A stretch of 64,000 nucleotides of DNA from a virus (IMGVR_UViG_3300031555_004294:96001-160000); one strand, 5' to 3'. Shown: positions 11,285 through 45,503, counted from the first letter of the stretch. Numbers and translations: made by a program. The notes: generated by a model not told the origin, from the letters alone.

Positions 11285-11358
11285 ACTTTCTTAACCTTTA
11301 AAACACCCTTCCAACATTCCATTATAAAATAACAAAGGAAAGGAGGAAATAACATTTT

Positions 11359-11982
11359 ATGACTGTAAACAATAGTTACATCATAGATACTCAAACCACC
11401 AATAAATCATTCAAACGAATGTATAAGATACTCAAAACTATTGGAGTTAAGAATAATAAATTCTTCTTAAAACTTTATGATACTAGTTTGCAAGGAGTAA
11501 ATCCTAGAGATGAAGCCAATTTAACTAAAGAACAGAAGATGCGTATACTAGCAGAATGTAAACGTAATCCTTGGTATTTCTTTAGAGAAGTGGTCATTCT
11601 GAATGTTGCTGGTGGTAAAAAAAGATTTGAACTACATCGTGGTAACTTAGCTATTCTATGGTGTATGTTAAACAACTACAACTCAATTACTTTATTGCCT
11701 CGTCAGCATGGTAAAACGGTTTCTACAGTATGTGGTTTTGTTTGGTTATATACCTTTGGTACAGAAAACTCAAACATACTCTTTATGAATAAAGACTTTG
11801 GTGGTTCAAAGAACAACCTAAAGCTATTCAAAGATATCTATGACAATTTACCTTCCTATCTTAAAAATAGAAACAAAAATGACAAAGACAATGTAGAATT
11901 CATTGTCAATGCAACTACTGGTAACACTATTCGTGCAATTTCATCGGCTATTAGTGCAGCTGAAGCAGATAAGCGAGGACGT
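11359..11982 (+). CDS. terL: Terminase large subunit, exon 1
   Basis: NPWYFFRE motif, Walker A PRQHGKT, ends ADKRGR at a group I 5' splice site. Late promoter 11313-11324. Confidence 0.9.
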
Positions 11983-12669
11983 AAATTTAACTGCGTTTCA
12001 ATAGCATAAACTATTGTCAAAAATTTCTTAATTGCTGGGAACATACAAAAAATTTGTACTATCAGCAGTCATTTATAAAAAAAAAAAGAAAGCCTTATAG
12101 AGACTTTCTTTTTTGTATGGAAATACTTTATTCTGTAACTTCCTCAACAGTTGTTTCTTCTGTAAGAGTATCAGGTTTAATTTCTACCAACTCTTCTTCA
12201 GAAGTAACTTCCTCAGTTACAGTTCCTTCATCGTTATTTTCAGTTTCAGCATTTGCTACATCAGATTGGATTTCCTCCAAGATGTTAGCAACCTGTTCCT
12301 TGAGCTTTGCCTTCTTCTTCTTTCTGATGTGGCAAACAGTACCTACTGCTCCTGCAACCAAAGCAACAGCTCCTACTCCAATAGCGATTACACCAATAGT
12401 CTTTCCGTTCATTTTTTAGTTCTCCTTTTTAAATAAAAATTTTTGTTAGAATAATTTATGTATTTCCTTCTAACTCACAATAAGAATATATATTTGAAAA
12501 GTTGAACTTTACGATTTTTATAAATGATTCAACGACTATATATTACATTCAGAATTTGAATGGAAATTGAAATGATCCTTAACACTAGGATTTTGATATA
12601 GTCTCAACTTCTATGGAAACATAGAGAATATTTTACATGAACTAATGACTCATGTATCAAGATTTTTTG
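11983..12669 (+). mobile_element. Group I intron (IA-like) in terL
   Basis: P1: exon GGACGU pairs with intron GCGUUU, U.G at the splice site. P AAUUGCUGGGAA (~12030), Q UAUCAGCAG (12060), R UUCAACGACUA (12528), S GAUAUAGUC (12595), P7.1 hairpin, terminal G 12669. Splicing restores GR|GLTSPLIYYDEFAF in frame. Confidence 0.93.
12128..12412 (-). CDS. Small single-pass membrane protein encoded antisense inside the intron P6 loop
   Basis: AAAAGGAG RBS, N-terminal TM helix then RKKKK and an acidic tail. Own early-type promoter 12483-12495 and terminator ~12077-12112. Confidence 0.8.
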   Translation of the reverse strand: MNGKTIGVIAIGVGAVALVAGAVGTVCHIRKKKKAKLKEQVANILEEIQSDVANAETENNDEGTVTEEVTSEEELVEIKPDTLTEETTVEEVTE

Positions 12670-14109
12670 GGTTTAACCTCACCTCTTATCTACTACGATG
12701 AATTTGCTTTCTTAAAGTTTAACAAAATCCTTTGGCAAGCAGCTGCACCTGCACAGGGTCAGGCAAGAGAAGAAGCTCGTCGAAATAAATCATTCTACTC
12801 AGCAACTATAACTACTACACCAAACAATATAGATAACAATCCTGAATCAGAAGGAACTTGGTGTAAGTCAGAAATGGTTGATAAAGCATGTCGCTTTGAT
12901 GAAGCCATGTATGACTGGACTAGAGAAGAAGTTCTTGAATGTCTGGCTAAGAAATCTGATAACGACTTTTTATACATTGAGTTTTCTTACAAACAACTTG
13001 GTCGTGATGAAGTATGGTATAAAGAAAACTGTCGTGCATTAAATAACGACCTTCTTAAAATCAAACGTGAAATTCTTCTTGAATGGACAAAAGCATCTGA
13101 CGTATCAGTATTCTCTGAGGAACAGTTAGTTGCAATAGAAAAGCATTTGAAAGAACCAGTATCTAAATTAGTCATTGACAGATATTGGTCTATTGATCTT
13201 TATAGAACAGACTTTGATTATCTTAAACCTTGGGTAATTTCTTGTGACGTTGGTACTGGCCTTTCGCAAGACGCTTCTGCTATAACTATCTTCCATCCTA
13301 TAACATTTGAAATCATAGGTGAATTTAGAGAGAATAAAATAGATACAGAAGACTACAAGCATTTACTTGAGAAGTTGGTTGGCTTCTGGTTCCGTAATTC
13401 ATTGCTTACCATAGAGAACAACTCTATTGGTATAACGATCATACAGTACTTAATGCGAACAGTTGTAGCTAAGAACTTGTACTATGAATACAAGGATCGA
13501 AAAGGTACTAAGATAGAGAAATCTAAGACTGAGTTAACACATGTTAGTAAAAAAGAAAAGGTACAAGTTTATGGTATTTCAACTACAAGTAATTCCTCTG
13601 GTAGTGGTAGCCGTGACTTAATGTTAGAAATTTTGAACGATACTATAAACACACAACCTGAATTATTAGCAACACCCAACCTATTCTCGGATATTAAGGG
13701 ATTAGAGAGAGATAATAAAGGAAAGATCGGCCATGGTCTTGGTCTCCACGACGACTCTCTCTTTTCTTATTTAGTTGGACGTTACACTCTAGCTTATGGT
13801 ACTAACTTAGCTCGTTTCCAAATGCCAGTAGATGGTAAAGAACCTGCAGATAGAAAGGCTAGTATGGCACGTATGTCACATAATTTACAAGAAGCCAATA
13901 GACTATCAGTTAGACCTGGTGCTACTAAAGCATTCGGTTATAATGGATTAGCAAATCAAGAAATTGAACAAGCTAGCTACTTAGAATTAAGAAAACAAAT
14001 AGATGCTGGTGGTAGAATTGGTGTTTATACTAGTATAAGTCAAATTGAGGAATTAGATAAGAAAAGTAAATACCGACTATTAAGTTCTGACATTTGGGAT
14101 AACAAATAA
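12670..14109 (+). CDS. terL: Terminase large subunit, exon 2
   Basis: Walker B YYDEFAF, TTTP coupling motif, RNase H-like nuclease residues CDVGTG...D, IENN, HDD. Confidence 0.9.
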   Translation, partial: GLTSPLIYYDEFAFLKFNKILWQAAAPAQGQAREEARRNKSFYSATITTTPNNIDNNPESEGTWCKSEMVDKACRFDEAMYDWTREEVLECLAKKSDNDFLYIEFSYKQLGRDEVWYKENCRALNNDLLKIKREILLEWTKASDVSVFSEEQLVAIEKHLKEPVSKLVIDRYWSIDLYRTDFDYLKPWVISCDVGTGLSQDASAITIFHPITFEIIGEFRENKIDTEDYKHLLEKLVGFWFRNSLLTIENNSIGITIIQYLMRTVVAKNLYYEYKDRKGTKIEKSKTELTHVSKKEKVQVYGISTTSNSSGSGSRDLMLEILNDTINTQPELLATPNLFSDIKGLERDNKGKIGHGLGLHDDSLFSYLVGRYTLAYGTNLARFQMPVDGKEPADRKASMARMSHNLQEANRLSVRPGATKAFGYNGLANQEIEQASYLELRKQIDAGGRIGVYTSISQIEELDKKSKYRLLSSDIWDNK

Positions 14110-43953: not shown

Positions 43954-45503
43954 GTGTGTCACGTTGATCTATAACTTGAAAGAATCAAGGAAATGATCGA
44001 TATAAGTATACTTATGTTAACTGTAAGTTTGATTGGTGGAATGAAATACGGCAATCAGTATGAAACACCAACATTAATACTCCTACATGCATTAAAAAAT
44101 AGCTAGAATTATTTAATGTGTGAAGCTAGGTGAAGACGTATTCATAGTAATGCGGATGGTTCTATAATATGGTGAGGAACACGAATTTTCTAACGTCCAA
44201 TGTTTTGGGATTAGTAGTATGATAGTGGCGAAAATCCTATTGAATGATGCTTCAATTGAAAATATTGGGAACAGAAAACACCTAAGTTATAGAAATACTA
44301 GAATTTACGGAACGTGAGAAGTTTCTATAAAAAGAAAATAGCTGATACTTTTTATAGAAATGGCAGCAGCCTGTAGTAGCGATGAAGCTTTTGTAATGAA
44401 AGTGGAGTGAAGGGGCATAGTCAATTTTTTGATTGAACTTTTTCTAACGATCAAACAATTTATTAAATACTTTTACAAAGGAGATTAATAAAATGGGTAG
44501 AAAAAGTAAATCACATGAAGATTTTGTTAAAGATGTTATGAATATTTTAGGACCAGAATATCAAGTGCTGGGAAAATATATCAAATGTTCTGAAAAAATA
44601 AAAATGAAACATTTAAAATGTGGATTAGAATATGAAACTGAACCTAGAACTGTAATGCATGGATCAGGATGTCCAATATGCAATACCGATTTTCATATGT
44701 CACATGATGAATTCGTTTCAAAAGTAAATAAAGAGGGAGATAACGAATATGAAGTCCTAACTCCTTATATCAATACAAAAACAAAAGTAACGCTAAAACA
44801 TAAAGTGTGTAATGAAATTTATGAAGTTGCACCTAGAAATTTCTTTCAAGGTAAAAGATGTCCAAAATGTACTAAAGTAAAACGTGTGACAAATGAAGAA
44901 TTTGATCGACGTCTGTTAAACATTTATGGAAATGAATGGACTAGAGTTTCAGAGTTTATGGCAATAAATAAGGAAATTCTAGTTAAACACGAAAATTGTG
45001 GGAACATAATTAAGAATACTCCAAAAGTTATTTTAAGTCAAAGATTTGGATGTAAATATTGTAAGATGACTAGCGGAGAATTTAGAATTAAATCTGTTTT
45101 AGAAAACTTAGATATAAAATTTACCCCACAAAAGAAGTTTGATGATTGTAAAGATCTAGGTTACTTATTTTTTGACTTTTATTTTTGTATTGACAATAAA
45201 GAGTATATCATAGAATATGATGGACGACAACATTTTCTTCCTATTTTTGGTCATAATGATAAAGAACGACAAGAACGTTTAGAATTTACGCAAAAACATG
45301 ATGAGATGAAAAATTTATATTGCGAAAACCATAATATAAATTTGCTGCGTATATCATATGATACTCCCTATCAGAATATTCAATCAATAATTGAAAACTT
45401 CATAAAGAAAAATTGATGGAACGCTGTGTGAGGTGAAAGTCTCACGCACAGTGTGAAGTGGGGGAAAAAATAGAGATAACTTCAAAGTTTTACCTATCAC
45501 TAT
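43954..45503 (+). mobile_element. Group II intron in RNAP beta'
   Basis: 5' GUGUG, 3' ...CACUAU. Domain V aaCGCtgtgtgaggtGAAAgtctcacgcacagtgt at ~45419-45454. EBS1 GATAGT (44221-44226) is complementary to the exon end ACTATC. Splicing restores TRFPIENY-Q-SIYPSRIK. Confidence 0.92.
44493..45416 (+). CDS. Intron-encoded endonuclease: three Zn-ribbon repeats plus a Vsr/DUF559-like PD-(D/E)xK domain
   Basis: H..C...CPxC repeats, FDFY...IEYDGRQH...D..KN.YC....I.LLRI. No RT (YADD) motif. Stop lies directly before domain V. Confidence 0.85.
   Translation: MGRKSKSHEDFVKDVMNILGPEYQVLGKYIKCSEKIKMKHLKCGLEYETEPRTVMHGSGCPICNTDFHMSHDEFVSKVNKEGDNEYEVLTPYINTKTKVTLKHKVCNEIYEVAPRNFFQGKRCPKCTKVKRVTNEEFDRRLLNIYGNEWTRVSEFMAINKEILVKHENCGNIIKNTPKVILSQRFGCKYCKMTSGEFRIKSVLENLDIKFTPQKKFDDCKDLGYLFFDFYFCIDNKEYIIEYDGRQHFLPIFGHNDKERQERLEFTQKHDEMKNLYCENHNINLLRISYDTPYQNIQSIIENFIKKN

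Follow-up and report, generated by a model that had tools for sequence, protein, structure and literature searches.

The common view of phage group I introns is that of selfish ribozymes with homing endonucleases as their sole passengers. The open reading frames (ORFs) of phage T4 introns have promoters of their own (PMC2988022), and in the jumbo phage AR9 the early gene g190 was shown experimentally to lie, with its own early promoter, inside the intron of the late gene g189 (PMC5312081). Gene g190 encodes an HNH-AP2 homing endonuclease and shares its strand with g189 (PMC5312081, supplementary tables). AR9, PBS1, BpSp and phiR1-37 form a group in which each phage has a pair of multisubunit RNA polymerases. 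We describe here a 687-nucleotide (nt) group I intron in the gene for the terminase large subunit (terL) of a related, uncultured phage, at positions 11983..12669 (plus strand) of IMGVR_UViG_3300031555_004294:96001-160000, a 64,000-nt stretch that we refer to as the window. An earlier note on this DNA had stated that ORFs in phage group I introns are normally sense-strand endonucleases, which holds for AR9 g190, the nearest case in print, and had read the cargo of the terL intron as something different. Our analysis leads us to consider it probable that the P6 loop of this intron has been colonised by a self-contained antisense early transcription unit, a 'moron', that encodes a single-pass membrane protein.

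The virus record, 299,070 bp long with 31% G+C, contains the window as its bases 96001-160000, and judged by its terminase and RNA polymerase genes the phage groups with the AR9/PBS1/BpSp/phiR1-37 jumbo phages. The terminase large subunit (PHROG 32359) is encoded in two pieces, the ORFs 11359-12009 and 12652-14109. Exon 1 (11359..11982, plus strand) comprises 208 codons with Walker A, matches PHROG 32359 with an E value of 7e-69 and ends in GAC GT, with U as its last base. Exon 2 (12670..14109, plus strand) comprises 479 codons with Walker B (LIYYDEF) and the nuclease domain, and the intron separates the segments that encode Walker A and Walker B. When the two exons, 208 codons ending at 11982 and 479 codons starting at 12670, served as separate tblastn queries, the end point of one and the start point of the other fell on adjacent bases in the Bacillus phages BpSp (145752|145753) and Goe21 (103650|103651). 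The same contiguity was found in Staphylococcus phages SA1, S6 and DC4 and in the IMG/VR relatives L012/L013, bringing the intronless homologues to at least six overall. Because the flanks are contiguous in these homologues, the boundaries 11982|12670, as the earlier note had placed them, are exact to the base. The predicted splice joins ...RGR|GLT... in the protein and CGT|GGT in the DNA. Upstream, terL is preceded by a terminator, and a late-promoter match (AACA-TTCCAT-TA, 11313..11324, plus strand), weak and found by eye, lies about 35 nt before the terL start; the AR9 late-promoter consensus is AACA-(6N)-TA/G (PMC5312081). By its sequence context we class terL as a late gene.

Near-identical DNA is present in several animal faecal metagenomes. 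Among the contigs of four DNA runs, those from other faecal runs cover 11802-12213 and 11878-12624 with zero differences and bridge both junctions of the insert, and the same gene order and arrangement occurs on 14 contigs from several samples. Since independent contigs bridge the junctions and the arrangement is kept on 14 contigs, the intron with its insert is not an assembly artefact. One X2 contig has a joint from 11945 to 12703 (757 nt skipped; side 26) that might come from an intronless relative; its depth is low, and it was too weak to use.

The intron possesses an intact group I core, in agreement with the earlier note. Its 5' half (TTAATTGCTGG...ATCAGCAG) and 3' half (TCAACGACTA...GATATAGTCT) match those of compact introns in the same genome that score 55-57 bits on the Rfam model RF00028, for which the gathering score is 50. 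The scores on this model of six uninterrupted introns at other places in the genome are 44.7-57.1 bits, four of them above the cut-off, and the terL intron has in common with these introns the motifs TTAATTGCTGG (P3/P4), ATCAGCA (P4'), TCAACGACTA (J6/7-P7) and GATATAGTCT (P7'). In the minimum free energy (MFE) structure of the 715-nt precursor, P2, P4, P5, P6 (13/13 pairs), P7, P7.1, P8, P9 and P9.1 are all formed, the pair probabilities of the five helices checked (P4, P6, P7, P8 and P9) are 0.93-0.97, and zero pairs connect the insert with the core.

At the 5' end (11977..11998, plus strand, as are all core elements), the exon sequence GGACGU (11977-11982) pairs with the guide GCGUUU (11993-11998) to give a 6-bp P1 with U11982.G11993 at the 5' splice site; four of the six pairs are present in the MFE structure. 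A 4-bp P10 (11989-11992 with 12670-12673) is available, and the final base of the intron, read from the sequence, is G12669. The P2 hairpin (11999..12016; 11999-12004/12011-12016) is formed with 6/6 pairs. The 5' strand of P3 (12022..12027), read by eye, has as its partner GAAAUU at 12563-12568 (or GAAAU at 12569-12573) and makes a pseudoknot with P7; it is missing from the MFE structure because a pseudoknot is outside the reach of a nested fold, and homologous pairs covary across the intron family. P4 (12033-12038/12062-12067), which is kept in all family members, encloses P5 (12044-12049/12053-12058) in the segment 12033..12067, each with 6/6 MFE pairs, and the pair probability is 0.94. Downstream of the insert, Rfam alignment, the MFE structure and covariation place J6/7, P7 (12534-12541/12596-12603), P7.1 (12546-12551/12557-12562), the 3' strand of P3 and P8 (12574-12579/12587-12592) in 12528..12603, a region with DNA matches to annotated Intron_gpI features of Staphylococcus phages. 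They are followed in 12609..12656 by P9 (12609-12615/12620-12626, with a GAAA loop) and P9.1 (12634-12640/12650-12656).

These helices are further supported by covariation. In a 13-member alignment of 3' halves analysed with RNAalifold, all 13 predicted pairs (P7.1 and P9) carry compensatory changes, including 6/6 pairs of P7.1 (12546-12562). P8 is a distinct hairpin in 11 of the 13 family members, P7 shows one compensatory double change (intron i28k), and the sequences of P6 and P8 differ wholly between members with complementarity kept. Introns of the phage IA type are marked by a P7.1 hairpin between P7 and P3', and on this single hairpin we assign the intron as IA-like. Taken together, the helices, the compensatory changes and the likeness to introns that pass the Rfam gathering score identify 11983-12669 as a group I intron, which is predicted to splice.

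P6 is the place at which this intron departs from its compact relatives. Its arms, TCATTTATAAAAA (12069..12081) and TTTTTATAAATGA (12515..12527), form a perfect inverted repeat of 13 bp (100% complementary; 13/13 MFE pairs, probability 0.95) around a loop of 433 nt, in line with the roughly 430 nt given in the earlier note. ATCAGCA(G/T) and (T)TCAACGACTA immediately flank P6 in every family member. The six cargo-free introns have a P6 hairpin of 5-10 bp with a small loop; in the cargo introns the stem measures 12-19 bp, with sequences that differ and are always complementary. We also observed an 11-nt perfect inverted repeat between the 5' arm of P5 (12042-12052, CATACAAAAAA) and a segment just past the cassette terminator (12109-12119, TTTTTTGTATG), which could be a competitor of P5 or a scar of the arrival of the cassette.

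The P6 loop is occupied, with no spare sequence, by a promoter, a leader, a Shine-Dalgarno (SD) sequence, an ORF and a terminator, all on the minus strand; each element of the earlier note's antisense unit could thus be located. The promoter (12476..12495, AAATATATATTCT-TATTGT-G, predicted start G12476) is identical at 12 of 13 positions, with the G at the start site in addition, to the AR9 early promoter as established by experiment, AAATATATATTAT-(6N)-G, in which G is the start site (PMC5312081). Dinucleotide shuffles predict 0.2 occurrences of the 13-mer in the genome, in which 8 exact copies are present, a 40-fold enrichment of the motif. With one mismatch allowed it occurs 25 times against 5.5 expected, and in 15 of these 25 cases an SD, a start codon and an ORF lie downstream; the 20-nt pattern with at most one mismatch is found 6 times in the window against 0.16 expected. 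By its sequence this is an AR9-type early promoter of the virion RNA polymerase kind, from which transcription would be early. The 5' untranslated region contains a 7-bp hairpin (12445..12474, GTTAGAA/TTCTAAC). As a separate observation, the promoter and leader (12445-12495) are about 75% identical to those of an early-type gene at 278.56 kb of the genome (G000 278561-278640), and the stem sequences of the two leader hairpins differ with pairing kept.

The SD (12422..12425, GGAG within AAAGGAG) stands 9 nt ahead of the ATG (12412) of a 94-codon ORF (12128..12412 with its stop). A codon model trained on 106 long phage ORFs, which average 0.36 +/- 0.12 bits per codon, gave log-odds of 0.73 bits per codon in the frame of this ORF and at most 0.02 in the other five frames. 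An intrinsic terminator follows (12082..12114), a 14-pair hairpin and then 11 T that reach into the complement of the P6 5' arm; hairpin and T run together span 12114-12075, and a terminator scan detects it on the minus strand only. As the earlier note had pointed out, it is the better terminator on that strand owing to a G.U pair: the minus-strand version has -13.6 kcal/mol and 11 U, and the plus-strand version -10.5 kcal/mol, with the G.U pair lost and a shorter U run.

The 94-amino-acid (aa) protein would consist of a transmembrane (TM) helix (residues 6-24) rich in Gly, Ala and Val, with a mean hydropathy of 2.4, the basic stretch RKKKKAKLK, and an acidic tail of 54 residues with 19 D/E and 1 K/R. 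By the positive-inside rule, the short N-terminus is most likely outside the cell and the acidic tail cytoplasmic. Pfam and PHROGs gave nothing significant for the ORF (best PHROG E value 0.006-0.08). A search for homologues in 5.8 billion sequences found only the protein itself, as did one of 1.84 billion cluster representatives, apart from one marginal match to an acidic repeat. The ESM Atlas model (predicted local distance difference test, pLDDT, 0.43) has single helices as its structural neighbours and is uninformative. No significant similarity to endonucleases, whether of the LAGLIDADG, GIY-YIG, HNH, His-Cys or PD-(D/E)XK kind, was detected by Pfam or PHROGs in the ORF or in the sense-strand frames, which bears out the earlier note's view that the ORF is not an endonuclease; nor is it a recognisable remnant of one. 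That note had further taken the intron as a landing pad for an accessory early gene, for example one for superinfection exclusion or host membrane takeover. The role of harbour is probably right, given the recurrence described below; the two functions are a guess for a protein without relatives, and no significant sequence or profile similarity to superinfection-exclusion, holin or spanin-type families was found.

The design is not confined to this gene. Introns with an antisense, early-promoter-driven, non-endonuclease cargo and a long P6 were found six times; this genome has two of them, a 320-kb relative has three and BpSp has at least one. The second case in this genome interrupts an RNA polymerase beta gene. 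This intron of 5484 nt (G000 67803-73286, minus strand; L001 5803-11286) belongs to the same family, and its flanks lie exactly one codon apart, at a split Phe codon, in SA1, S6, DC4, LPJP1 and phiR1-37. The 5265-nt loop of its 14-bp P6 (CTTATCTTAAAAAA / TTTTTTAAGATAAG) has an early-type promoter immediately within the 3' arm and a terminator immediately within the 5' arm, and its 12 tightly spaced ORFs are read from the opposite strand. The ten largest of these ORFs belong to no Pfam or PHROG family. Neither this intron nor its orthologue in the relative has a recognisable P8.

In the 320-kb relative (G001), terL exon 1 is 79% identical; there is no intron at 208|209, and terL has two others. 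The first contains a sense-strand ORF of 322 aa. The second has a perfect 15-bp P6 and an antisense promoter (TTTATATATTAT), SD, 89-aa ORF and terminator, and the product of this ORF has the layout of the 94-aa protein, namely a TM helix, KAKK and an acidic tail. It is an orphan too, and a common cargo protein family was rejected, as the 89-aa protein has no detectable similarity to the 94-aa protein. The RNA polymerase beta gene of the same relative has two more such introns, each with the promoter motif just inside the 3' arm: intron A, with a 15-bp P6 and one antisense gene for a 397-aa protein, and intron B, at the site of the 5.5-kb intron of this genome, with 5-6 antisense ORFs. The intron A product (L095 2773-3966, plus strand) consists of Myb-like DNA-binding repeats (PF00249, 1e-18), which are unusual in the product of an early phage gene. 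A 35-nt terminator module with one mismatch is common to intron A and the beta intron of this genome.

The same arrangement can be read in a cultured phage. In BpSp, which infects Bacillus pumilus, the RNA polymerase beta gene is broken up by introns of this family whose loops hold, on the opposite strand, gp249, gp247 and gp246, published as hypothetical (L096, KT895374.1, 188796-196313). For gp249 an early promoter (AGATATATATTAT), a terminator and a long P6 are legible. The BpSp cargo proteins are soluble and unrelated to the 94-aa protein; gp246 is placed between the 5' strand of P7 and P7' and not in P6. When 80 terminase loci were scanned for motif pairs, L038 was flagged; it turned out to consist of two compact introns within a DNA polymerase gene and is not a cargo intron. 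The recurrence with unrelated cargo supports the view that the intron loop is probably a harbour for accessory genes, and the near-invariant sequences that flank P6 could be short homology arms for the exchange of cargo between introns. The terL cassette is more interesting as a member of a recurring design than alone.

The alleles of related phages, which the earlier note had proposed to compare, present a varied picture. The terL site 208|209 is used sporadically, being empty in L008 and L012/L013 and occupied in phiR1-37 and LPJP1 by introns of about 2 kb with sense ORFs, and such sporadic occupation fits past homing. Introns in or near this site carry sense ORFs of 322 aa (L008 6622-7837), 526 aa (phiR1-37 g144, L005) and 262 aa (LPJP1, L006). 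Pfam did not recognise these three ORFs, the sole match being a weak one to DUF559/zinc-ribbon in LPJP1, and they may be uncharacterised homing endonucleases.

How such a locus could operate is suggested by the order of its signals. Early in infection, a minus-strand RNA of about 400 nt (12476 to ~12080) would be made, translated and ended inside the intron, and this RNA would contain neither exons nor a functional core. Late in infection, terL would be transcribed through the cassette on the other strand, on which the terminator is weak and would not halt late transcription, and ribosomes would be absent from the loop. The 13-bp P6 clamp would then shut the 433-nt loop, so that the ribozyme core could fold and the exons be spliced. 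In this scheme the antisense orientation would insulate the early and late expression programmes from each other, the use of the opposite strand would keep ribosomes on the cassette from entering the ribozyme, and the intron would give the accessory gene a phenotypically silent site within an essential gene.

Several observations weigh against the reading of the cassette as an antisense early moron. Rfam at gathering thresholds detected no group I intron in the whole window, a group II intron being the sole match; at relaxed thresholds RF00028 aligned to 12530-12626, the 3' half only, with 30.3 bits (local E value 1.3e-5). The score is below the threshold because the 433-nt insert splits the model. 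The 94-aa protein is an ORFan that is identical on all 14 contigs, and selection on it cannot be measured because there is no homologue and the copies are identical. The termination signals of the non-canonical phage RNA polymerases are not established, so the argument from a polar terminator rests on bacterial-type rules. Finally, a third intron in this genome with cargo, at 292.9 kb (G000 ~292443-292945, minus strand; L004 4443-4945), has a 19-nt imperfect P6 around 255 nt with an early-promoter-like motif (AAATATATATTTT) and a weak terminator, both in sense orientation, and no ORF above 35 aa; a small RNA or a peptide of 17 aa may be its product. Because its signals run sense, the antisense orientation is to be seen as frequent and not as universal or obligatory.

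Other explanations of the locus were weighed against the same evidence. It is improbable, in our view, that the cassette within a real intron is a regulator whose early antisense RNA base-pairs with the P6 loop of the terL precursor and delays or modulates splicing or terminase expression. An early-type promoter opposed to a late gene would suit this role, and the 292.9-kb insert, with promoter and terminator and no longer ORF, indicates that RNA-only cargo may exist. However, the cassette has an ORF with a strong SD and phage codon usage in a single frame, the other cargoes consist of 1 to 12 ordinary protein genes, and the transcript is predicted to end inside the loop, short of core and exons, while terL has its own late-type promoter match, so that it would not be transcribed early anyway. 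The earlier note's proposal that antisense transcription could hold back terminase expression is unsupported. We likewise see little chance that the ORF and its signals are a decaying or accidental remnant, for instance of a replaced homing endonuclease gene, in a loop that expresses nothing functional. A full cassette packs the loop, its promoter is an exact copy of a 13-mer expected 0.2 times per genome, its codon score of 0.73 tops the mean of the 106 training ORFs, endonuclease similarity is absent in every frame, and the design is seen six times. What a remnant would account for is the ORFan status and the low-complexity tail of the protein, a sense strand that is also open (frames of 121 and 107 aa), and the presence of sense ORFs, probably endonucleases, in introns at or near the site in phiR1-37, LPJP1 and the 79%-identical relative.

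A further explanation is a loss of one-piece splicing: either the terminase would be made as two polypeptides (from ORFs of 216 aa and 485 aa), or the two halves of the intron would be transcribed separately and joined in trans via the long P6. The frame of exon 1 does reach a stop 9 codons into the intron, an in-frame ATG lies 6 codons ahead of exon 2, the published phiR1-37 annotation has two separate terminase genes, and a long P6 clamp would suit a two-piece ribozyme. In split constructs of the T4 td intron, a two-piece ribozyme with a P6 clamp has reportedly been demonstrated by experiment. Nevertheless, the core helices are all intact and covary, no SD precedes the ATG at 12652, dividing the protein between Walker A and Walker B would break up the ATPase fold, the loop has no plus-strand promoter motif, and the plus-strand version of the terminator is weak; we therefore regard this explanation as very improbable. 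In a wider form of the preferred reading, P6 loops would be a general, exchangeable platform for early genes in AR9/PBS1-like jumbo phages, filled by 'intron-borne morons', with a long clamp that frees splicing from the intactness of the loop and with the benefit of the cargo, rather than homing, keeping the introns in place. In this wider form a two-piece ribozyme might arise, for example, if RNase III cut the sense/antisense duplex or if transcription of the loop were interrupted. We regard this generalisation as rather unlikely.

The colonised P6 loop, if it works as proposed, has several implications. A ribozyme loop here carries ordinary accessory genes, from 1 in the terL intron to 12 in the beta intron, and does so in a cultured Bacillus phage as well, which makes BpSp a laboratory system for the design. 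If the cassettes are expressed, introns would offer jumbo phages a cost-free route for adding and exchanging early genes within essential late genes. Such loci would then be systematically mis-annotated by gene callers and intron finders, the Rfam gathering threshold missing the terL intron being one instance, and long P6 clamps would represent a testable rule for the tolerance of foreign RNA by a group I core. Elsewhere in the window, Rfam identifies group II intron domains at 44016-45503 (RF02004, 91 bits; RF00029, 57 bits).

Neither antisense nor non-endonuclease cargo is described for phage group I introns in a 2026 survey, which counted 2513 such introns in jumbo phages of the gut, in reviews of bacterial group I introns, T4 mobile elements, nucleus-forming jumbo phages and jumbo-phage RNA polymerases, or in the Staphylococcus jumbo-phage comparison; the AR9 and BpSp genome papers are outside this scope, and absence is not proven. 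Among described systems, AR9 g190 resembles the terL cassette in phage lineage, in the kind of early promoter (AAATATATATTAT-(6N)-G) and in being an early unit within the intron of a late gene; in contrast to the sense endonuclease of AR9, the terL cassette is antisense and not an endonuclease. The T4 td intron (IA2, with I-TevI looped out of P6a) is likewise of phage IA type, with extra pairing between P7 and P3' and an independently promoted ORF in the terminal loop of P6, in an essential host gene. Its cargo is a sense homing endonuclease gene, whereas that of the terL intron is antisense and non-endonuclease, has its own terminator and lies behind a P6 lengthened to 13 bp.

More distant systems share single features of the arrangement. 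Nuclear ribosomal DNA introns (Didymium, L2066; PMC9548176, PMC3679873) also carry a protein gene opposite to the host-gene strand in a peripheral loop, but they are eukaryotic, the cargo is a homing endonuclease, and signals of the RNA polymerase II type together with spliceosomal introns are needed. The giant ND5-717 intron of hexacoral and corallimorph mitochondria (PMC6545197) has ordinary non-endonuclease genes in its loop and is a precedent for the 12-gene intron; it differs in being mitochondrial, with core mitochondrial genes in sense orientation, back-splicing and no separate antisense promoter or terminator. The IStron of Clostridioides difficile (a group I intron with IS605, PMC3984707) is similarly a composite of a splicing intron and foreign cargo, although this cargo is a transposase at the 3' end of the intron that serves the mobility of the element. 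Phage morons, finally, are autonomous units of promoter, gene and terminator that leave their neighbours undisturbed, and the terL cassette has its own promoter and terminator around a gene that is absent at that place in relatives, in which the site has no intron (L012, L013 and L008) or another cargo. Morons sit between genes, whereas the terL cassette sits in the loop of a ribozyme.

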